A stretch of 58,475 nt of DNA from an uncultured Bacilli bacterium. GTDB lineage: Bacteria; Bacillota_I; Bacilli_A; RF39; UBA660. The DNA is taken from NCBI GenBank assembly GCA_947586825.1, contig CANPXU010000005.1, positions 1 to 58,475 on the forward strand, read 5' to 3'. Positions 15,630 to 58,395 of the stretch are shown piece by piece (positions within the stretch are counted from its first letter, which is position 1; each line of letters opens with the position of its first letter). Under the pieces are notes generated by a model, which worked only from the letters and a program-made list of their open reading frames with translations, ran no database searches and had not been told where the DNA came from. Position numbers and translations under genes: made by a program.

Positions 15630-16400
15630 ATGGAAAAGAAAAATACAATTTTATTAACAATTGTTGCTATAGCAACGCTACTTGTAACTGTAATAGGAGC
15701 TACATTTGCATACTTTGCTTCAAACGTTAATACTGATGCAAAGGTTGGTGTAAATGTTAATACTTCAAATAAGCAAGCATCATTTATAGCAACATCTAAT
15801 GGTAGCTTAGATATCAATGTTGAAAGCTACATGATGCAACAAGCTGATGCTGGTGATGGAAGCACAACTACTTCGAACAATGAGAATATTGCTAAGAATT
15901 TAACCACTAGTGCTACATTAAATGTTTCATTAACGGGAACAGATGATGAAAAAAATACAACTTGTACATATGATTTAATATATACTTGGACAGGAAGCGA
16001 TACAAATTTTAGCAATCCAGGCTCATCAAATAACGGAATTTACCCTTCTAAGTATTATGTAAGAACAAACAATAGTAATAGCACAGGTTTTAAAGAATTA
16101 ACAATAGAGGTAGATGCAACTGGTGCATATGTAGGAGATAATAGCGATGAAAGAGGTTTTTCAGCAGTAATATTAAAAGAAAAAAATATTGATGAATTAG
16201 CTCCACAAACGACAAATAATCAAGATAATAAAATTTTAGTTTTAAAGGCTGGCGAAACTATTACTAGTCAAAGTACAACGCAAGCTAGTCACGTTGATTA
16301 CCAAATTACTGTTAGATTTTATAATTTAGGAAGCCAACAAGATAATTTAATGAACAAGAAATTTAGTGGAACGGTAAGCGTTGCTAACGTTAAATGTTAG
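15630..16400 (+). CDS. SipW/TasA-type signal-peptide protein, array 1 member 1
   Basis: N-terminal TM ending GATFAYF; TCTYD and terminal Cys; promoter TTGACG-18-TATAAT upstream. Confidence 0.7.
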   Translation: MEKKNTILLTIVAIATLLVTVIGATFAYFASNVNTDAKVGVNVNTSNKQASFIATSNGSLDINVESYMMQQADAGDGSTTTSNNENIAKNLTTSATLNVSLTGTDDEKNTTCTYDLIYTWTGSDTNFSNPGSSNNGIYPSKYYVRTNNSNSTGFKELTIEVDATGAYVGDNSDERGFSAVILKEKNIDELAPQTTNNQDNKILVLKAGETITSQSTTQASHVDYQITVRFYNLGSQQDNLMNKKFSGTVSVANVKC

Positions 16401-16424
16401 TAAATTAAATAAAGGAGATTTAAT

Positions 16425-17180
16425 ATGGAAAAACGAAATACTTTATTATTAACAGTAATTGCTATTGCTACGCTTATGGTTGCAATAACGGGAGCTGCAT
16501 TTGCATACTTTGCAGCTCAAGTAAATATAAATAATTCATTAAATGTAGATGTTGAAACTACAGGTGGAAAAGCTATATTTACTGCCACTTCAAGTGGTGA
16601 AATTGCTATAGGTGTAGAAAGCTATATGATGCAAGAGCATGATGCTGATAATTCAAATACCAATACTTCAAATAATGCTGAAATAGCACCTTTATTAACT
16701 AACAATGCTACGATTAATGTTACTTTACAATCTTCTGAAGCTGGTAAAGAAACAACTTGTACATATGATGTAGTATATAAATGGAATGAAACAGCAAGTG
16801 GTAGTAACTTTACCGAAGAGTATTCCAAAGCTTCTTCAAATGGTACTGTGCATCCATCTAAGTATTATGTAAGATCTGAAAATGGAACTACGGCCGATTT
16901 TAAAGAACTTACAATTACTATTGAATCAAGCACTTATTCTGGGGAAGAGAGGCCTGATACCCAAACAGAACAACAAGAAGTTAATATTGATTATTTCAAA
17001 GATTCTGAAGGAAAGATAACATTATTACAAGGACAAACTATCGGAAGTGATAAAACAGATGATACAAACCATATAGTTTATGATTTTACTTTTAAATTTT
17101 ATAATTTGTCTATTGATCAAACTAAATTAATGGATAAAAAATTCTCTGGAACAATTTCAGTAGAAAATGTTCAATGTTAA
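16425..17180 (+). CDS. SipW/TasA-type signal-peptide protein, array 1 member 2
   Basis: GAAFAYF; shares TCTYD, PSKYYVR, FKELTI, FYNL..Q..LM.KKFSG with its neighbours. Confidence 0.7.
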   Translation: MEKRNTLLLTVIAIATLMVAITGAAFAYFAAQVNINNSLNVDVETTGGKAIFTATSSGEIAIGVESYMMQEHDADNSNTNTSNNAEIAPLLTNNATINVTLQSSEAGKETTCTYDVVYKWNETASGSNFTEEYSKASSNGTVHPSKYYVRSENGTTADFKELTITIESSTYSGEERPDTQTEQQEVNIDYFKDSEGKITLLQGQTIGSDKTDDTNHIVYDFTFKFYNLSIDQTKLMDKKFSGTISVENVQC

Positions 17181-17346
17181 TTTTTGATAAGGATTGCTAA
17201 TTAAAACTAAAGAAGAATGTAGTTTCTTCTTTTTTTATGCTCAAACGTTAACTCATTACGACAAATAATGTAATCTATCTAATTGCTTTTATTGACAATC
17301 TTTTTTATTATATGATAGTATTTAAATATAATAGAAGGAGAATACA

Positions 17347-18153
17347 ATGGAAAAAAGAAATACTTTAATATTAACAATAATTGGTGTTGCCACATTATTA
17401 ATTTCAGTAGTAGGTGCTACATTTGCATACTTTGCCTCAAACATAAATACTAATAGTAATGTTGGAGTTAATGTTCATACATCACCTAATAAAGCTGTCT
17501 TTACTGCTGCTGCTTCTGGTAGCATTAATGTTACAGTTGATGCAGTCGAAATGCAAGAAGGCGATGCCACAGATGATGGAACACAATCATCTAATACTAG
17601 TTTGATTGATGGGCTTACTGGTAAAGCAAATTTAAATGTTACTTTAAAAGCATCAGATAATGGACAACTTACAACATGTACTTATGATATAGTTTATACT
17701 TGGACTGGTGGAGAAAGTAATTTTACTGGTAGTGGCTATGAAAGCTTAACCGAAGCAGGAACTAGTTATAAATATTATCCTAGTAAATATTATGTAAGAA
17801 CTGGTTATAAAGATGAAAGTGGAAATGTTCAAGATGGTACTGAAGGATTCAAAGAGTTTACTATTGAAGGAACATTAACTACTGGTACAGTTGGTACTGA
17901 GGGTACTACAAGCGATGACGTATTTAAAGATGGAAATCATGGAGAAAAAAATATTGATACTTTTGGTATTCCTAATGATAAAAACCAAATAACATTAGTG
18001 TCTAAAGAACAAATAACTAGTACAAGTACTGCTAATGAAACTTATGCAAATTATGAATTTACAATTCGTTTCTATAATATAAATAAAGATCAATCTGCTT
18101 TAATGGGTAAAACATTTGCAGGTAACATTTCTGTAGCTAATGTTGTTTGCTAA
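17347..18153 (+). CDS. SipW/TasA-type signal-peptide protein, array 1 member 3
   Basis: GATFAYF and the same conserved blocks; own promoter TTGACA-18-TAGTAT after a terminator near 17209-17237. Confidence 0.7.
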   Translation: MEKRNTLILTIIGVATLLISVVGATFAYFASNINTNSNVGVNVHTSPNKAVFTAAASGSINVTVDAVEMQEGDATDDGTQSSNTSLIDGLTGKANLNVTLKASDNGQLTTCTYDIVYTWTGGESNFTGSGYESLTEAGTSYKYYPSKYYVRTGYKDESGNVQDGTEGFKEFTIEGTLTTGTVGTEGTTSDDVFKDGNHGEKNIDTFGIPNDKNQITLVSKEQITSTSTANETYANYEFTIRFYNINKDQSALMGKTFAGNISVANVVC

Positions 18154-29471: not shown

Positions 29472-29554
29472 ATGACTATATTCGACATAGGGTTTTATAA
29501 AAACCCTTTTTTTATTGATTAATATATGTTATTATAATATTGAGGTAGAACGAT

Positions 29555-30613
29555 ATGAAGGAATGGTTCAATAATAAGATTTTGGCTCATAAAAAACGTT
29601 ATATTATTATCGGTATCGTTCTTTTAATTTTGATTATATTTGTAGCAGCAGCCCTTTTTTCACATGGCTTTTTTACTAATTCAAGTGTTAACTTAATATT
29701 GAGTGGAACTGCTGAAATAGATAGTTCGGATATTAGACTTAGAATTTATTTACAAGAGAAAAAAAATGGAGCTCCTGTAGATAGCTATGCTGAATCTGTT
29801 GGTAGTGCCGTAGATGCAGAAAATTATATATTCAATCCTGCGAAGTCACATTGCACTGATGGCGAAGAAATTATTAAAGTTGAAAAAGGCGTTCTCACAA
29901 TTTCCTATGGCAAAAGAGGAACTTGCTCAGCTTATTTTGATGTTGTTACAAAAGACTATGATATAGTAACTAAGGTTTATAAAGAAAAAGATGGAGAACC
30001 TGGTAAATATGAGTATGTAGATAGTGGCACTGTTGATACGAGTCAATATAAGCTTAGTACAGAGTTATCTGATTGTACAAAAAATGGAACAGTAACTGCT
30101 GAAGGCAAAGCGTCATTTACTGGAATAGGTACTTGTGAAATTGTATATAAGAAAGATACTACTCAATGCTTTGTGGCAGGAACAAAAGTATCAGCAGAAA
30201 ATGGTTACGTAAATATTGAGAATATCAAAGTTGGCGATTTAGTGTGGTCAGTATCTGAAGAAACAGGTGAAAGAGAATTAAAGTCAGTATCAAATACGAT
30301 TATAAATGAAACAACAGAAATATATAAGATTAAAGTAGGTAACGTGACTATCGAAGCTACGCCAAGACACAGATTCTATGTAATGGATAAAGGCTGGGTA
30401 AGAGCATACGATTTAGAAGAAGGAGATTACCTTGTTAGTGGAGATAATAAAGAAAGACAAGAAATAACAGAAATAGTACACAAAACGAACTTAAATAATA
30501 CAAAGGTATATAATTTAGAAGTTGAAGATAATCATAATTATTTAATAAGTAGTGATGAAATATTAGTGCATAATGGTTCAACTACTAGTGGTGTAGAAAT
30601 ACTACCTGGATAA
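29555..30613 (+). CDS. Exported protein with two Cys-paired modules and a C-terminal Hint (intein-like) domain
   Basis: TM ending SHGFF; Hint from Cys205 (CFVAGT, nt 30167) through TPRH and VYNLEV to VHN340 (nt 30574), then 12 aa. Confidence 0.85.
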   Translation: MKEWFNNKILAHKKRYIIIGIVLLILIIFVAAALFSHGFFTNSSVNLILSGTAEIDSSDIRLRIYLQEKKNGAPVDSYAESVGSAVDAENYIFNPAKSHCTDGEEIIKVEKGVLTISYGKRGTCSAYFDVVTKDYDIVTKVYKEKDGEPGKYEYVDSGTVDTSQYKLSTELSDCTKNGTVTAEGKASFTGIGTCEIVYKKDTTQCFVAGTKVSAENGYVNIENIKVGDLVWSVSEETGERELKSVSNTIINETTEIYKIKVGNVTIEATPRHRFYVMDKGWVRAYDLEEGDYLVSGDNKERQEITEIVHKTNLNNTKVYNLEVEDNHNYLISSDEILVHNGSTTSGVEILPG

Positions 30614-30638
30614 CATTCGTAGCAAGTCAATATAATAA

Positions 30639-30670
30639 AACGAGATTTTGACGAAGAAATCTTGTTTTTT
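30639..30670 (+). terminator. Intrinsic terminator
   Basis: AACGAGATTT / AAATCTTGTT plus T-tract. Confidence 0.7.
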
Positions 30671-30827
30671 GTAGTATAGAAAATCAAGAATAACAAATAT
30701 TCACTTGCAAAAATTATGAGCTAGATATCATGCTTTATTTTTTATAACAATCAAAAATATATTAGTTTATTCAAAATGAAAGACGCTTATTAGCGCCTTT
30801 TTAAGTGTTTTAGTAAACGTTAATTTT

Positions 30828-31382
30828 TTATAATTCTCGCATTTTATCTTTATTTTTAAATGGATCTTTTTTATCAATACGATCGACAAACAAAATGCCG
30901 TTTAAGTGGTCTATTTCGTGTTGGAAAGCTACAGCGATTTCTTCGCGGACTCTGATTGTTTTTTCATTACCATCTATATCGTTATATTTAACTGTGATTC
31001 TCGCATGTCTTGGAACTATACCTTCAACATATCTATTGACGGATAAACAGCCTTCGCCTTCGCCAACATAAACAAGTTCTTCACTTTGGGATATAATCTC
31101 GGGATTAATGATAATATGAGTTTCAAATTCACCAGTGTCTTCATCTTTATTAGCTATAACAAAGATTCTTTTGGGAAGACCCATTTGAATAAAAGCAAGT
31201 CCCATGCCAGGTCTTAAATTACATTTTTTAGATATTTCTTCATCTTGAGATAATTCTAAGAATTTTATACTATCATTTATTAATTTTTTATCTTCGTTTG
31301 AAAGAGGAAAAGATACCTCTTTAGAAACAGTGTGAAGTATTTTTTCTTTTTCATCTAATACTTTGATTTTTGGAACTTCCAT
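30828..31382 (-). CDS. def: Peptide deformylase
   Basis: GMGLAFIQ, EGCLSV, QHEIDHLNG. Confidence 0.95.
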   Translation of the reverse strand: MEVPKIKVLDEKEKILHTVSKEVSFPLSNEDKKLINDSIKFLELSQDEEISKKCNLRPGMGLAFIQMGLPKRIFVIANKDEDTGEFETHIIINPEIISQSEELVYVGEGEGCLSVNRYVEGIVPRHARITVKYNDIDGNEKTIRVREEIAVAFQHEIDHLNGILFVDRIDKKDPFKNKDKMREL

Positions 31383-41125: not shown

Positions 41126-42112
41126 ATGGATAGAAGTAATAATGATGAAAAAAACAACAATGTTATCTTACTAATTGTTATAGCAATTGCTACTATGGTC
41201 ATTGTGGTAGTTGGAGCAACTTTTGCTTATTTAGCGGATATCGTTGAAAATGAAGCAACTGCTAACATAGGTGGTAAAACAGATGGTGGCAGTGATATGT
41301 TCCTTTTAGATGCTGGTGATATATTATCGTTAAATGTTACATATGATAATTTTGGTATTAATACTGGTGATCAAACTGATAGTACTGTTGCTAGTGTATC
41401 TCTAGCTGCAGGAAAAGAAAATATTACTCATAAATATAATATGTATTTAAATGTTATAAATAATGATTTTGAATATACTTCAGGAAATTGTTATTCTGTA
41501 AGTACTGAAGCAGGTAAGAGTATTGCTCAAACGATGGATGCTTGTGTAGCAGAAGGAAACCTTTGGGCAAGAAGAACTGACGAAGAAGAATATTCTTGCT
41601 ATCAAAAAGCAGCTTCTGTAGAAATTCCTCTTGATGCTATAAATAAAAATGAACTTACATGTGATAGATATGAAAATGCTATTTGGGCTAAAGAAGCTGT
41701 ACCTGAATTAGTGTTGGATTTGTATACTCTTACTGAAGATACTACTGAAGAATCTTGTGTAGGAGAGCCTACTAAAGGTGTATGTTTAAGAACCTCAGGT
41801 AGTATAGATTATAGTAGTGAAACTGAGTGTAGTGATGGTACATGGATTCCTAATGTTTTTAAAGCAGGTAAATGTTTTAAATTTAGTAAAAGAGTCGACA
41901 TTACAGAATCTAGACCAGATAAAAATAATAGATATGAAATTATAAAAGAAAAAGAAATAACTTCATCAAGAAAAGAAGATGTAACAGAGTATTATTTAGC
42001 TACAATAAGAATGGTAAACTTAGAACATAATCAAGTTATTAATACTAGTAAATTATTTAGTGGTAATTTGGTACTATCTGTAGTTGATGAAGATGTAAAC
42101 ACAGGACAATAA
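41126..42112 (+). CDS. SipW/TasA-type signal-peptide protein with a Cys-rich insertion
   Basis: GATFAYL; C-terminal VNL..NQ....KLFSG block; 8 Cys in the central region. Confidence 0.65.
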   Translation: MDRSNNDEKNNNVILLIVIAIATMVIVVVGATFAYLADIVENEATANIGGKTDGGSDMFLLDAGDILSLNVTYDNFGINTGDQTDSTVASVSLAAGKENITHKYNMYLNVINNDFEYTSGNCYSVSTEAGKSIAQTMDACVAEGNLWARRTDEEEYSCYQKAASVEIPLDAINKNELTCDRYENAIWAKEAVPELVLDLYTLTEDTTEESCVGEPTKGVCLRTSGSIDYSSETECSDGTWIPNVFKAGKCFKFSKRVDITESRPDKNNRYEIIKEKEITSSRKEDVTEYYLATIRMVNLEHNQVINTSKLFSGNLVLSVVDEDVNTGQ

Positions 42113-42130
42113 TAATAGTAAACTGAGTCA

Positions 42131-42166
42131 AAAAGTGATGTAAAGTCACTTTTTTATGTTATACTA
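42131..42166 (+). repeat. Duplicated terminator plus extended -10 cassette (second copy 43515-43551)
   Basis: AAAAGTGA-tgtaaag-TCACTTTT hairpin followed by TGtTATACT; copies identical except for one T. Confidence 0.85.
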
Positions 42167-42189
42167 TTTAATAGAATAAAGGTAAAGAT

Positions 42190-42849
42190 ATGAATATAAA
42201 TACTAAGAGTTTAAATTATAGTTTATTACTTACAGTTATATTCTTGGTAGCTTTAGCTGCTATATTTTCTTATGGTTATATGGGCTATAAAGCAAATGTA
42301 ATTAATAATGATACCTTAAGTGGTGAAGTATTGAAACCTGAAAATATTTTAAGCATAACTGGAGATACTAACTTTGCCCTTAATATAACATTAGATGAGT
42401 TATCAATTGTTGAAGCAAATAATAATTTATCTGATTTTATAGAAGATAATGAAAATGTGACTATTAACATATCTGTTGAACCTGAAAAATATAAAAATGC
42501 TGTTACATGTGATTATGTATTTTATTATGAGCCTACTACTGAATATAAACCAAGCCCAGGAGCAGAAAGCTTGACTGAGTTAGGTTTTTCTGGTAATTGT
42601 ACGGGATGTGTAGCTCCTAAAAATACCTTTGGTCCTGTTTCAATAGCTAATAAAACTCAAGGTACTAAAGAACAATTATATGAAGGAAGTATAACAACTG
42701 ACCCTGCTACTGGAAAAGCTACACAAACTTGGCAATTCCATTATCGTTTTTATAATTTGGAAATTGACCAATCAAGTGTAATTGGCAAAAATCCTTCAGG
42801 AAAAATTATTATCGAAGGTAAAAATTGTTATGCTGCAAAAAATTCATAA
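42190..42849 (+). CDS. Exported filament-like protein, module gene A
   Basis: TM ending IFSYGY; VTCDY and FYNLEIDQS..GKNPSG...C blocks as in array 1. Confidence 0.65.
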   Translation: MNINTKSLNYSLLLTVIFLVALAAIFSYGYMGYKANVINNDTLSGEVLKPENILSITGDTNFALNITLDELSIVEANNNLSDFIEDNENVTINISVEPEKYKNAVTCDYVFYYEPTTEYKPSPGAESLTELGFSGNCTGCVAPKNTFGPVSIANKTQGTKEQLYEGSITTDPATGKATQTWQFHYRFYNLEIDQSSVIGKNPSGKIIIEGKNCYAAKNS

Positions 42850-42867
42850 AATGAAAGGAAATAAACT

Positions 42868-43497
42868 ATGGGTAAGAAAAGAATTATAATTTTATCAATA
42901 ATTTCTGCTTTGTTAATTATTTGTACGTATATTTCTATTTCATATGGATTTTACGTAATATCCTCTAATGAACAAAAAGAAATGGAAACAGCTACATCAA
43001 CTCCTTCATGTGTTGGCTTAACAATAACTGATAGCAAAGCTTTTACTTTGGAAGCTGATTACGCAGCACCTATTACAGATGATCAATTTTTAAATAGTAG
43101 CACAACTACGAAAAACAAATACAAATATACATTTACAGTTACTAATGATTGTACAGATAAAAGAACTTTAAATATTGGCGTTGCGCCATTAGATGATTCT
43201 TTACTAATATCAAAAATAAAATATATTCTTGTAGATGGAAATAGTACCACCTTTGATAAAGCATCAGTTAAGAATATTAACATTTCCGGAAATAAAACCT
43301 TAACGGACGAAATGAAAAAAAACATTCAAAAGACCGTAGGAGTATCTGCACAATCTTTGTATAATATTGGTACTGTTACATTAGATAACAAAGGAACAAA
43401 AACTTTTGATTTATATATGTGGGTTAGTTCAGATGCAGGAAATGATGTTATGGATAAATCATTTAAAGCTGCTATCGTACTTGATAATATTTCTTAA
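42868..43497 (+). CDS. Exported filament-like protein, module gene B
   Basis: TM ending ISYGFY; PSCVGL, NDCT, FDLYMWV...GNDVMDKSF. Confidence 0.6.
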   Translation: MGKKRIIILSIISALLIICTYISISYGFYVISSNEQKEMETATSTPSCVGLTITDSKAFTLEADYAAPITDDQFLNSSTTTKNKYKYTFTVTNDCTDKRTLNIGVAPLDDSLLISKIKYILVDGNSTTFDKASVKNINISGNKTLTDEMKKNIQKTVGVSAQSLYNIGTVTLDNKGTKTFDLYMWVSSDAGNDVMDKSFKAAIVLDNIS

Positions 43498-43580
43498 TAT
43501 ATTATTGCTAAGAGAAAAGTGATGTAAAGTCACTTTTTTTATGTTATACTAATGTTAGTATGTAAGGTAAGGTTTTAATT

Positions 43581-44234
43581 ATGAATACAAAAAGTTTGAA
43601 TTATAGTTTGATGTTTTCAGCTCTTTTTCTCTTAGGTCTTGCGGGTATATTTTCCTATGGCTATATGGGATATAAAGCTAATGTTATAAATAATGATACA
43701 TTAAATGCTGAAATATTAAATCCAGAAAATATATTAAATATAACAGGAGATACAAACTTTTCTTTAATTATCGATGCTGATCATTTATCAATAGTTAATG
43801 CCACTAATGATGAAACAAATTATATTGATAATACCAAAAATGTAACAATTAATCTAACGGTTGATAAAGAAAAATATAAATCTGCAATTACATGTGATTA
43901 TGAAATTTATTATGAACCTACTGTTGAGTACACAAATTCAGCAGAAGTAGGAAATCTTATAGAACTTGGCTTTGCTGGTGAATGTACTCAGTGTGCCACA
44001 AATCAAAATAAATTTGGACCAATATCAATCAGTGGTGTTAAACAAGGTGCTCAAGCATCTCTTTATAAAGGAAGCATTACAACTGATGCTAGTACGGGAG
44101 CTGCTACTCAAACATGGGCCTTACATTATCGCTTTTATAATTTAGATATAGATCAATCAAGTGTTATAAATAAACAACCATCTGGTAAAGTAGTAATAAA
44201 AGGTAATGAGTGTAGAGCTGCTCATACCGGCTAA
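43581..44234 (+). CDS. Exported filament-like protein, module gene A' (paralog of 42190-42849)
   Basis: Aligns end to end with gene A. Confidence 0.65.
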   Translation: MNTKSLNYSLMFSALFLLGLAGIFSYGYMGYKANVINNDTLNAEILNPENILNITGDTNFSLIIDADHLSIVNATNDETNYIDNTKNVTINLTVDKEKYKSAITCDYEIYYEPTVEYTNSAEVGNLIELGFAGECTQCATNQNKFGPISISGVKQGAQASLYKGSITTDASTGAATQTWALHYRFYNLDIDQSSVINKQPSGKVVIKGNECRAAHTG

Positions 44235-44256
44235 AACTTAGATAGGAAGGTGACTT

Positions 44257-44880
44257 ATGAACGCAAAAAGAGTAACAATTCTTGTATTACTTTCAATTGC
44301 AATTGCAATGAGTACTTATATTGCAACATCCTATGGTTTTTATGTTATAAACTCTAATGAAAAAGTTGAAATGAATACAACGACTAGCACACCTAGTTGT
44401 GTTGGCTTAACTATTGCAAGTTCGAGCACTTTTACATTAGGTAGTGATTACGCTGTACCAATTAGCGACAATCAATTTTTAAATAGTAGTATTACGACGC
44501 AAAATAATTTTAAATATACTTTTACTGTAAAAAATGATTGCACAGAAGAAAAAAAGTTATCTATTGGCTTTGTATCTTTTGATAATAATGCAGCACTTTT
44601 AAATAACTTAAGATACATATTAGTGGAAAGTGGTGCTAAGTTAGAAAAATCTAATATAAAAAGTGTAGTTTCAGGATCTCCTTCCGTAATTTCTAAAGAT
44701 ATGCAAGAGCATTTAAAAGATAAATATAATCTTGTATCACCATTAACTTATAAAATAGGAGATGCTATAATTAGCAATGCTGGTTCTAAGACTTATGATT
44801 TATATGTTTGGCTTAGTACCAGTGCAGATAATAGTGCTATGAATCAATCATTAAAGGCAACAGTAATTTTATATAATTAA
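44257..44880 (+). CDS. Exported filament-like protein, module gene B' (paralog of 42868-43497)
   Basis: Aligns end to end with gene B. Confidence 0.6.
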   Translation: MNAKRVTILVLLSIAIAMSTYIATSYGFYVINSNEKVEMNTTTSTPSCVGLTIASSSTFTLGSDYAVPISDNQFLNSSITTQNNFKYTFTVKNDCTEEKKLSIGFVSFDNNAALLNNLRYILVESGAKLEKSNIKSVVSGSPSVISKDMQEHLKDKYNLVSPLTYKIGDAIISNAGSKTYDLYVWLSTSADNSAMNQSLKATVILYN

Positions 44881-48246: not shown

Positions 48247-48801
48247 ATGAATAAAAAGGGTTTTACATTAATTGAATTATTAGCCGTAATTGTTATATTA
48301 GCCGTAGTTCTTTTGATCGGGGGCTCAAGCATGACTGCCGTTAGAAATGCTCTCAATAGAAAAATGTTTGATACTAAATTAAGTTTGGTTATATCCTCTG
48401 CTAAAAAGTATGGTGAAAGTAATAAAGATTTATTTATTGACACTAATGGTCTTGCCTCTAAAGCAGTTTATAAAACTCTTGCAGAATTAATTCAGTCAGG
48501 AGATTTAGAAACTGAAGAAGCAACGACTGGATTATCGCCTTGCCTTAATCCTGTTAATGATAGTAATGGCAATAAATTATGTGCGGCAGTTATTAATCCA
48601 GTTGATGATAATGTAATTAATTCTTTGCGTTTAAAAATATATATGGAAAATAATCGGGTATATGCTTGTATTCCGCTTACTAATGAAAATAAAACGATAT
48701 TAAATGAAACTAGCTGTGTTAAATCTAGTTGTAGTGGAGATTCATGCGTATATCAAAATTGTGAATATAGTGAATTAAATTACTATTGTGTAATAGACTA
48801 A
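48247..48801 (+). CDS. Type IV pilin-like protein (prepilin cleavage/methylation signal)
   Basis: KKG|FTLIELLAVIVIL class III signal. Confidence 0.85.
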   Translation: MNKKGFTLIELLAVIVILAVVLLIGGSSMTAVRNALNRKMFDTKLSLVISSAKKYGESNKDLFIDTNGLASKAVYKTLAELIQSGDLETEEATTGLSPCLNPVNDSNGNKLCAAVINPVDDNVINSLRLKIYMENNRVYACIPLTNENKTILNETSCVKSSCSGDSCVYQNCEYSELNYYCVID

Positions 48802-56633: not shown

Positions 56634-57776
56634 ATGAAAAAGAACCAAGAAGTTGATAAACAGAGTTTAAATGAACTTATTCATTTATCAAAGAACTTAT
56701 TAAGAGTTTTTTATATAATGTTAATAATATCCATCGTATTTGTCGTATTCTTTCTTTGTAAACAAGCTGGTATTTTTCCTGCGATTGAAGGAATGCTTGG
56801 GGTTATATCTCCCTTATTCGTTGGATTTGTAATTGCTTGGTTATTCTATCCTTTACAAAAGAAACTCGTAGATAAGAAATTTAATAAAGTAGCAAGTGCT
56901 ATTATGATTTTTATCTTCATTATAGCTATTCTGGCTTTCTTCTTATATTTCTTTATGCCAATTTTATATGAACAAGTTAGTGATTTTGCTGAATATATAA
57001 CTAAAGTAATTCCTGATGTTACTAAATGGGCTACTGATTTAATTAATAAGATTAATATCAAAGGTATTGATGTAACATCGATAAAAGATGGTATTGTTAA
57101 CGCAGTAAAAGATTTTGTCCTTAATATAGCAAATGATTTACCAGGTAGTATTATTGATATTGTTAAAGGCTTAGTATCTGCAGTCGGCGTCATTATTATG
57201 AGCCTTATCATTGGCCTTTATATGTTAATCGATTTTGAAAATATTACAAAAAACTTCTATAAGGTATTGCCTAAAAAGAATCATGAAGATTATGTTAATT
57301 TATTTCAAAGAATAGGCACTGAAGCTCGTAAGGTAATAAATGGTACTTTATTCGTAGCCTTTATCGTCTTTGTCTTTGACACCATTGGCTTTATGGTCAT
57401 TGGCTTAAAGAGCTCAGTATTATTTGGTTTATTCTGCGGTATTACGGATTTAATTCCTTATATTGGCCCATATATTGGTGGGGCAGCAGCGACTATCGTA
57501 GGATTTACCCAAGGCCCTATCATTGGTGTAGGTACATTGGTAATTGCGATTATTGTTCAATTCGTTGAAAGCTACGTACTACAACCACTTGTTATGAGCA
57601 AAGCAATGCAATTAAATCCCGTTGTTATAATAGTAGGTCTATTAATATTTGCACACTTCTTTGGTATTCTGGGAATGGTTATAGCTACACCATGTATTGC
57701 TATTATAAAAGAAATAATACTATTTGTAAGAAGGAAGAATGTCGATGGAAAAAGAAGAAAAGTTAATCAAGAATAA
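56634..57776 (+). CDS. AI-2E family transporter
   Basis: DLIPYIGPYIG, QFVESYVLQP, NPVVII. Confidence 0.9.
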   Translation: MKKNQEVDKQSLNELIHLSKNLLRVFYIMLIISIVFVVFFLCKQAGIFPAIEGMLGVISPLFVGFVIAWLFYPLQKKLVDKKFNKVASAIMIFIFIIAILAFFLYFFMPILYEQVSDFAEYITKVIPDVTKWATDLINKINIKGIDVTSIKDGIVNAVKDFVLNIANDLPGSIIDIVKGLVSAVGVIIMSLIIGLYMLIDFENITKNFYKVLPKKNHEDYVNLFQRIGTEARKVINGTLFVAFIVFVFDTIGFMVIGLKSSVLFGLFCGITDLIPYIGPYIGGAAATIVGFTQGPIIGVGTLVIAIIVQFVESYVLQPLVMSKAMQLNPVVIIVGLLIFAHFFGILGMVIATPCIAIIKEIILFVRRKNVDGKRRKVNQE

Positions 57777-58395
57777 AATGTCTATAGCATCTATTGTAGC
57801 AAGTGTAATGTTATTATCAATTGTTTTATTAGGAGCCTCTTATGCTTTCTTTTCTGATCAAATGAATGGCACCGATGATTCACTTACCTTTGGAAACGGT
57901 CTTAATGTAAGCTTTACTCTTGATGCTGGTAATTCAATTGATTTTGATTTTAACCCTTTAGAAATGACTAATGCTACAGCTGATGGAACTCAGTATATTG
58001 ATAGTACTCCAGGAAATGGTACTGTAACGCTTGAAAATCACTCAGGCAAGCAAACAATTACTTGTGAATATGAAGTCTGGTATAAAGCTTTATCCACTTT
58101 TGAAAATAAAGACAAGAAAAAAGACATTTCTTTAATAACTCAAATAACTTCAGAAAATGATACAGAAAATGAAGTTAATTTAAATGAGGTAGCTGTTAAT
58201 TCGGATAGAAAAATCTCTGATGAGTATATTACTGTAAATGGCGTTAATGCGACAGCAACGCAAAAGTGGACTTTTAAATTTAGACACTTCATTTTACCTG
58301 ACGTAAATCAAAATGAACACTTAGGACAATCTTTTAGCGGTCAAGTGTATTTTAAAGCAAAGAAATGTTATGAGGGAACTAAAGCTAGCAGTTAA
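57739..58395 (+). CDS. SipW/TasA-type signal-peptide protein
   Basis: GASYAFFSD; ITCEY; NQ..HLGQSFSG...C; start ATG 57739 or 57745. Confidence 0.7.
   Translation: MSMEKEEKLIKNKMSIASIVASVMLLSIVLLGASYAFFSDQMNGTDDSLTFGNGLNVSFTLDAGNSIDFDFNPLEMTNATADGTQYIDSTPGNGTVTLENHSGKQTITCEYEVWYKALSTFENKDKKKDISLITQITSENDTENEVNLNEVAVNSDRKISDEYITVNGVNATATQKWTFKFRHFILPDVNQNEHLGQSFSGQVYFKAKKCYEGTKASS

Follow-up and report, generated by a model that had tools for sequence, protein, structure and literature searches.

Hint domains splice (inteins), release toxins (pretoxin-HINT) or hand a C-terminus to another molecule (Hedgehog, ciliate BIL2). What such a domain does when almost nothing follows it is the question raised by P0001, a predicted protein of 352 amino acids (aa) encoded in a 58,475-nucleotide (nt) stretch of contig CANPXU010000005.1 from an uncultured Bacilli bacterium (this whole stretch is referred to hereafter as the window).

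29555-30613, forward strand: open reading frame of P0001, 352 codons open, then the stop codon TAA at 30611-30613

As there is nothing behind the Hint of P0001 to release, it can act only on the C-terminus of the surface protein that carries it. The explanation we favour, and to which we give about an even chance, is that P0001 is a small Sec-exported surface protein whose Hint would remove itself through thioester formation and asparagine cyclisation. We prefer this explanation because the terminal His-Asn pair and a short tail are conserved, because the protein lacks an adduct-recognition region, and because orthologs in related species function without a Hint.

A complete type A Hint domain at the extreme C-terminus of P0001

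Residues 205-340 of P0001 form a bacterial intein-like (BIL) domain of type A, or PT-HINT domain, with intact catalytic motifs, an assignment that we make with high confidence. The protein matches Pfam PT-HINT (PF07591) at 74.2 bits against a cut-off of 27.7 (E 1.6e-20; profile positions 4-136 of 137), as well as the NCBIfam models for the N- and C-terminal regions of inteins, and residues 204-340 match the BIL domain of Clostridium thermocellum (PDB 2lwy) with an E-value of 7.5e-22. In an AlphaFold2 model built on a 48-row alignment (mean predicted local distance difference test score, pLDDT, of 82), a helix (residues 10-38) and a disordered linker (38-55) precede two beta modules, the Hint and a disordered tail, with pLDDT values above 93 throughout residues 205-340. 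Foldseek superimposed the Hint on 2lwy with a template modelling (TM) score of 0.94 and a root-mean-square deviation of 1.4 Å (E 3.8e-14, 39% identity); the second match was Tetrahymena BIL2 (6y75/6tmm; TM score 0.83), followed by many inteins. The four elements that the initial annotation of this locus had recognized (Cys1, TxxH, block F and His-Asn) all align with those of 2lwy and other Hints:

30167-30574, forward strand: type A BIL / PT-HINT domain, residues 205-340 (profile, structure, motifs)
30167-30169, forward strand: Cys205, Hint position 1
30359-30370, forward strand: block B, T269-P-R-H272
residues 318-329, forward strand: block F, VYNLEVEDNHNY
30569-30574, forward strand: His339-Asn340 of block G, L-V-H339-N340
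30575-30613, forward strand: C-terminal flank G341-STTSGVEILPG352 (12 aa, predicted by AlphaFold2 to be disordered) and stop codon

The flank consists, as annotated initially, of a glycine and 11 further residues. G341, the residue at +1 after H339-N340, is non-nucleophilic, as in the type A BILs defined in PMC4031507. Domains of this type end in His-Asn and have no +1 nucleophile; their cleavage products dominate, and when they splice they do so by forming a thioester, cyclising the asparagine and letting the freed amino group attack the thioester (PMC4031507, PMC7664689, PMC7765530). Because this chemistry needs no +1 nucleophile, the premise from which the locus was first interpreted, namely that splicing needs Cys, Ser or Thr at +1, does not apply to the Hint of P0001: type A BILs undergo cleavage in the absence of such a residue and are also able to splice, by aminolysis (PMC4031507).

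By analogy with these domains, an N-to-S acyl shift at the Gln204-Cys205 junction would, after export, yield a thioester; Asn340 would cyclise with the assistance of His339 and so cut off the tail; and the thioester would then be hydrolysed (cleavage) or attacked by the amino group newly exposed on the tail (splicing by aminolysis). The Hint would thereby be gone, and the ectodomain that remained would correspond to the Hint-less orthologs found in related species. The autocatalytic activity of the Hint, the order of these steps and the fate of the thioester are predictions.

The closest studied relative, the C. thermocellum BIL domain 2LWY (Amitai 2003, Dassa 2004 and Aranko 2013, as cited in PMC4031507), shares with the Hint of P0001 its fold, Cys1, TxxH, C-terminal His-Asn and a non-nucleophilic +1 residue, and likewise resides in a non-conserved secreted or surface protein. 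Unlike it, the Hint of P0001 lies at the extreme C-terminus with 12 residues behind it, and falls in or next to a clade of short-tailed Hints described below. Three other identities were considered for P0001 and rejected: a canonical intein, given the Gly at +1, a host that is a rare and variable surface protein and the insertion at the host's C-terminal end; a Hedgehog/Hog domain, given the His-Asn pair and the mere 12 disordered residues after the Hint; and a sortase substrate, the tail (GSTTSGVEILPG) having no hydrophobic segment of the kind that, with an LPXTG-type motif and a charged tail, marks such substrates.

Short tails are a stable design

Orthology, paralogy, a homolog survey and selection show that P0001 has a stable short-tailed design and is not truncated. 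The position of the stop codon is supported comparatively. The syntenic ortholog from the closest species, a sister of the source genome, keeps the Hint and ends HN-VGSATGGGGIPSTKD, a tail of 15 aa directly before def. A paralog on contig C4 of the source genome, a 445-aa exported protein made up of one related N-terminal module, Ig-like repeats and a Hint, ends HN-VGSDN (a 5-aa tail), its Hint being 66% identical to that of P0001.

The homolog census comprised the best 120 of 444 matches with lengths of 0.55-1.75 times that of the query, and the counts given below for homologs refer to these 120. Cys1 and His-Asn are kept in all of them. Tails measure 3-28 aa in 96 of the 120, with a median of 4, and are never 0-2 aa long; 77 of the 96 short-tailed homologs start with the type IV pilin-like motif G-[FI]-T-L-[IV]-[EA]-L. 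About a fifth of the homologs are of the toxin type, with tails of 50-280 aa. Where the genomes are named, toxin-type copies come from Chryseobacterium and some Clostridia (tails of ~100 aa, Cys at +2), and short-tailed copies from metagenome-assembled genomes of gut Bacilli and Clostridium (tails of 5-19 aa). Among 40 non-redundant short tails, 37 have a residue with a hydroxyl or thiol group within positions +1 to +3, 26 of them a Ser at +3; the flank of P0001 reads Gly-Ser-Thr.

The Hint is under purifying selection, with a Nei-Gojobori dN/dS of 0.12 relative to a 94.5%-identical copy found in another metagenome and an unrelated gene context, and of 0.13 relative to the C4 paralog. In a maximum-likelihood tree built from 62 Hints, the short-tail label requires 6 changes (5-6 over the two trees calculated) compared to ~20 when shuffled (none of 500 shuffles being as low), and a clade of 30 short-tailed and two long-tailed sequences has a support of 87/89. 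A quick tree placed P0001 and the C4 paralog inside the short-tail clade, and 2lwy with toxin-linked Hints; on the PT-HINT profile, toxin-linked Hints score ~111 bits and short-tailed ones ~70 bits. Short-tailed Hints would make up a coherent subfamily that occupies the very C-terminal end of surface proteins, many of them pilin-like, in gut Firmicutes.

These findings bear on the possibility that a toxin domain once stood behind a pretoxin Hint and was lost, leaving the Hint of P0001 as a remnant. The placement of the domain under PT-HINT by Pfam is consistent with such a history, as are the toxin-type fraction of the homologs and the source name of one of them, 'polymorphic toxin-type HINT domain-containing protein'. 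We nevertheless consider it very improbable in view of the low dN/dS (0.12), the same short-tailed layout in the sister species, the separate clustering and lower PT-HINT scores of short-tailed Hints, the lack of an immunity gene and of a toxin-delivery N-terminus, and a Gly-Ser-Thr flank in place of the +2 Cys of toxin-type proteins. The initial annotation had likewise found neither a toxin domain nor an immunity gene. Only the 12-aa tail follows the Hint, and no immunity gene lies 3' of it, where 214 nt with a terminator-like hairpin separate the stop codon from the convergent gene def. A truncated polymorphic toxin was in turn rejected as an identity for P0001 on the grounds of selection, ortholog conservation, tree clustering, flank residues and the absent immunity gene, and the distribution of tail lengths among the homologs agrees with the original view that this is not one.

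Further parallels with pretoxin-HINT proteins (MafB, CdiA/FhaB, Rhs-type) are evident beyond the match to their Pfam family above the gathering score: in both, the Hint sits at the border between a constant N-terminal and a variable C-terminal part, and Hint DNA behaves as a recombining cassette. P0001 differs from them in its lack of a toxin domain, immunity gene, toxin-trafficking N-terminus and +2 Cys, and in its score (74 versus ~111 bits). Modular type IV pilins such as PilB and PilC of Streptococcus sanguinis (PMC8179133) offer another comparison, in that most homologs with a terminal Hint are pilin-like and carry a module grafted at the C-terminal end; P0001 itself, unlike these pilins, has no class III G-F-T-L-x-E signal. 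PMC8179133 makes no mention of Hint or intein modules. A type IV pilin-like identity was rejected for P0001, in which the G-[FI]-T-L-[IV]-[EA]-L motif is missing and PF07963 finds no match. A literature search on BIL and Hint domains in relation to pilins, sortases, the cell wall and thioesters, which did not extend to the founding papers (Amitai 2003, Dassa 2004), gave no description of short-tailed terminal Hints on pilin-like or surface proteins. While the domain type is known, the layout is new relative to this literature: an intact Hint that ends pilin-like and other surface proteins, followed by 3-28 residues and forming a clade of its own.

The Hint as a cassette added to a self-sufficient protein

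The gene order thyX-tmk-gene-def-ftsW, in which the gene encoding P0001 occupies the middle position, is kept across the genus; the Hint is not. The syntenic orthologs of two more distantly related species (G018, 215 aa, and G019, 205 aa) are Hint-less and end 4-20 aa past the last strand of the second beta module, and the 34-112 nt of intergenic DNA downstream of them contain no remnant of Hint DNA. Since both proteins end exactly where the Hint starts in P0001, self-removal of the Hint would leave what these relatives make directly. We conclude that a protein sufficient in itself has gained the Hint as a lineage-specific addition.

Nucleotide homology between the gene of P0001 and those of other Hint proteins extends from codon 203-205 to codon 341 (gene nt 608-1022), with unrelated flanks. 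Between the source genome and its sister, the ectodomains of the orthologs are 65% identical in amino acids and 74% in nucleotides, compared to 91% in nucleotides for the Hint. The 3' end of the sister's Hint was observed to be closer to the C4 paralog of the source genome than to the ortholog (L010:1501-2223, L021:3-155). The gap in identity between Hint and ectodomain and the mosaic 3' end are suggestive of gene conversion among Hint copies, of fast divergence of the exposed ectodomain, or of both. Because homology is confined to the borders of the Hint, and because the Hint of the sister species is mosaic, we infer that Hint DNA acts as a cassette exchanged or converted between genes; the Hint of P0001 may owe its origin to such a lineage-specific cassette.

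A cassette of this kind could also be an intein-like passenger, purely selfish or neutral, that recombination has carried to the 3' ends of genes for surface proteins; it would persist only because it splices or cleaves itself out cleanly, the host gaining nothing from it. The presence or absence of the Hint among syntenic orthologs, a homology that stops precisely where the domain does, and the mosaic resemblance of the copies to one another are all compatible with a passenger; so is purifying selection, which is expected for inteins too since splicing must persist, and the lack of any zero-length tail among the homologs fits the need for an Asn-cleavable bond. Arguing against it are the absence of a homing endonuclease or other mobility function, the association of the clade with particular carrier types (the 77 of 96 pilin-like proteins), and the consideration that an inactive Hint at a C-terminus need not harm its host protein, which makes selection for activity harder to explain. 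We regard a passenger as unlikely; its mechanism would overlap with that of self-removal and differ from it solely in who benefits.

Fate of the thioester

The initial annotation had proposed that the Hint activates the C-terminus of the 204-aa N-terminal fragment as a thioester, for release or for attachment to another molecule. Such activation is chemically sound and has a precedent in BIL2 (PMC8616854); release, splicing and ligation are indistinguishable by the present analysis. The case in which an external nucleophile attacks the thioester at Cys205, so that the ectodomain becomes attached via Gln204 with neither ATP nor a sortase, seems to us possible but doubtful. Candidate acceptors would be the head group of a lipid or an amine, whether on peptidoglycan, lipid II, a second subunit or a target surface.

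One argument for ligation is Tetrahymena BIL2, the second-best structural match, which joins its N-extein to Lys residues of several substrates (PMC8616854). Strong purifying selection acts on a Hint without cargo behind it, and terminal Hints form an entire clade on carriers, pilin-like and surface proteins, for which a covalent bond would be plausible; both point in the same direction. A second type of terminal Hint in the source genome, described below, keeps Cys1 and block B and lacks His-Asn, an indication that what selection maintains in both types is the chemistry at the N-side junction. On the other side, the strict His-Asn and the three or more residues after it point to C-terminal cleavage, for which a pure Hedgehog-type transfer has no need; the tail consists of 12 disordered residues and provides no adduct-recognition region; the syntenic orthologs work without a Hint; the five sortase-domain genes of the genome leave no anchoring gap to fill; and no conserved partner gene adjoins the Hint gene at 29555-30613.

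Comparison with the two best-known transfer systems is instructive in this respect. BIL2 of the Tetrahymena thermophila protein BUBL (6TMM/6Y75) is the second-best match to the Hint of P0001 in sequence (E 4e-8) as well as structure, and is the precedent for ligation, with a thioester that serves to link the N-extein to amines on other proteins. It differs in being eukaryotic and cytoplasmic, in its ubiquitin-like flanks and in the nucleophilic Lys of a folded C-extein; in P0001, nothing folded follows the Hint and the tail is devoid of Lys. Hedgehog/Hog proteins resemble P0001 in that an exported cargo is followed by a terminal Hint and the thioester forms at the junction of the two, yet Hog domains lack the terminal His-Asn and possess a sterol- or adduct-recognition region, whereas P0001, with its 12-aa tail, presents the reverse.

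Extended to the whole subfamily, the same idea would make short-tailed terminal BILs a widespread ATP- and sortase-independent module for the activation of C-termini, in which the Cys1 thioester is passed to an amine of the wall, a lipid, a subunit or a target surface. We find this generalization rather improbable. Were it correct, its carriers would be the pilin-like and TasA-signal-like proteins of gut Firmicutes; bacteria would then possess an equivalent of Hedgehog cholesterolysis and ciliate BIL2 conjugation, and the hydroxyl at +2/+3 and the obligatory Asn-cleavable tail would help control the transfer.

Returning to the explanation that the Hint removes itself, an argument in its favour is that His-Asn and at least three residues after it are kept in every short-tailed homolog, a pattern that points to a reaction including C-terminal cleavage. 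Several observations weigh against it. The short-tail clade has no characterized member, and 2lwy, the relative that has been studied biochemically, groups with toxin-linked Hints in the quick tree; in the maximum-likelihood tree the placement of P0001 is soft. If self-removal were its sole outcome, selection would be keeping a 136-aa domain whose net product equals that of the Hint-less orthologs, which speaks for an additional role or for a selfish nature of the element. Tail sequences are poorly conserved, arguing against a need for the spliced product. Lastly, self-removal does not account for the hydroxyl or thiol residue at +1 to +3 in 37 of the 40 short tails.

If the Hint does nothing but remove itself, P0001 would represent a natural case of an intein-like cassette gained and kept at the 3' end of a gene. 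If the thioester is instead transferred, the protein would exemplify a new covalent attachment of bacterial surface proteins and a compact natural tool for C-terminal ligation. One locus offers both Hint-bearing and Hint-less orthologs and with them a ready comparison.

The second type of terminal Hint was observed in two other proteins that have the same Cys-paired N-terminal module, one encoded on contig C32 (5230-6564, forward strand; L003:757-2091), the other being P0156. Both retain Cys1 and block B (T-R-D-H) but not the His of block F; their terminal His-Asn is replaced, and some 30 hydrophobic residues (IYAVSLGILGVSFNVHMV...) follow. From its sequence, this type looks like a Hint active on the N-side only (Hog- or B-type-like) or one tethered to the membrane.

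Export signal and ectodomain

The part of P0001 that precedes the Hint consists of a hydrophobic signal-anchor and two Cys-paired modules, as initially annotated:

29600-29674, forward strand: hydrophobic signal-anchor, residues 16-40, ending S36-H-G-F-F40 (sequence, AlphaFold2 helix, family alignment)
29726-29947, forward strand: beta module 1, residues 58-131, with the Cys pair C100/C124 (AlphaFold2, Cys positions)
29960-30157, forward strand: beta module 2, residues 136-201, with the Cys pair C174/C194 (AlphaFold2, Cys positions)

P0001 contains Cys at positions 100, 124, 174, 194 and 205, and in the alignment of the ectodomain family C100 and C124 of module 1 are invariant. The ectodomain is probably a two-module, all-beta structure stapled by disulfides. 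Its model (pLDDT 91.5) retrieved no PDB fold with an E-value below 0.07 or a TM score above 0.25, TasA and camelysin included, and so offered no clue to function. Residues 41-204 define a rare family with 43 representatives at E ≤ 1e-3 among 1.84 billion proteins. Its members have one to three Cys-paired modules and C-terminal heads that are variable or missing, a Hint being carried by two of the 43 listed representatives (P0001 and one other); an exact-protein look-up for the 352-aa product returned zero matches.

A Cys-paired module of ~70 aa (...Y.YN..KS.C..G......KG.C.VYFD) was noted at the N-terminus of at least five surface proteins of the source genome (window 29675-30166; L004:1333-2658; L005:577-1965; L002:1492-2829). 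Their C-terminal ends behind this module differ, being glycine-rich ('GHSGNGYARITL'), of the form 'RPSFYL...NPY', a Hint, or missing. One of these proteins shows a weak match (E 0.014) to the LMxysn_1693 intestinal colonization family.

The description of P0001 as SipW-like, proposed at the outset, stands only as a resemblance of the signal peptide. Its hydrophobic segment ends in an aromatic motif, SHGFF, where the transmembrane segments of the ectodomain family end S-Y-[AGS]-[FYH]-Y (SYAFY in relatives), resembling in this the SipW-dependent proteins TasA and camelysin; and the genome encodes two SipW-type signal peptidases (TIGR02228 matches above cut-off, on contigs C12 and C6), neither of them near P0001. 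Unlike TasA and camelysin, P0001 has no TasA-like fold and no adjoining sipW, and TIGR04088, the model for SipW-cognate signals, matched neither P0001 at E-values up to 1 nor the ortholog of the sister species. A window gene at 15630 scores 15.2 bits on this model, under the cut-off of 19. In total, 17 proteins of the genome, P0001 included, have a transmembrane segment ending in the TasA-like aromatic-small-aromatic-aromatic motif; loci of this kind were noted at 15630-18153, 41126-44880 and 57739-58395 of the window and on contigs C7, C8, C17 and C27.

The initial annotation had further regarded the Hint as a sortase-free anchoring route for a filament family. This proposal is not borne out: the genome has five matches to sortase domains, the nine TasA-like genes of the window are without a Hint and show no detectable relation to P0001, and two syntenic orthologs are Hint-less. 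The idea of a sortase-less genome was dropped in view of these five genes. Membership of P0001 in the nine-gene TasA-like family of the window was also rejected, as a genome-wide whole-protein search matched none of the nine; that search returned only the Hint paralogs and weak matches to the N-terminal module (contig C15; contig C4 at 20673). P0001 and the TasA-like genes have the signal-peptide motif alone in common.

Expression signals and genomic context

The source genome, which we take to be that of a gut member of the Bacilli with a small genome, has an assembly of 1.2 Mb, with 29.5% G+C, a completeness of 82% and translation table 11; the record of an assembly from the same genus names an uncultured Bacilli bacterium and, as its origin, a rabbit-gut metagenome. 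The following features surround the Hint gene:

29489-29507, forward strand: intrinsic terminator of the upstream gene tmk (terminator scan)
29527-29535, forward strand: candidate extended -10 element, TGtTATTAT (read by eye, tentative)
29543-29547, forward strand: Shine-Dalgarno sequence GAGGT, 7 nt 5' of the ATG (read by eye)
30631-30673, forward strand: terminator-like hairpin with U-run (RNA fold -13.8 kcal/mol, z = -2.4)
30828-31382, convergent to the Hint gene: def, with 214 nt between the stop codon and def

Given the terminator of tmk on one side and a hairpin of its own on the other, the Hint gene forms a separate transcription unit. The rule-based terminator scan missed the hairpin at 30631-30673 because its stem is AT-rich, and a consensus scan listed no full -35/-10 promoter upstream of the gene.

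Other Hint genes have different surroundings. The C4 paralog (C4:51-3560, L002) and a 398-aa homolog of another organism, combining a pilin with a Hint (L075:7001-10106), both lie directly upstream of a gene of the LtaS-like sulfatase family. The two sulfatases are 45% identical, and the arrangement could reflect synteny by descent or a functional pair. The LtaS-like sulfatase was discarded as a general partner of Hint proteins, being absent beside P0001, and another homolog has different neighbours.

Genes related to pili were also noted in this genome. The SipW-type peptidase on contig C6 (47304-47807) adjoins TadE/Flp-like pilus genes. The window contains a lone type IV pilin-like gene (48247-48801, forward strand; MNKKGFTLIELLAVIVILAVVLL...) that encodes a Cys-rich C-terminus and lies between the GTPase genes engB and der, and the single match to a prepilin peptidase in the genome maps to contig C4 (5494-6288).

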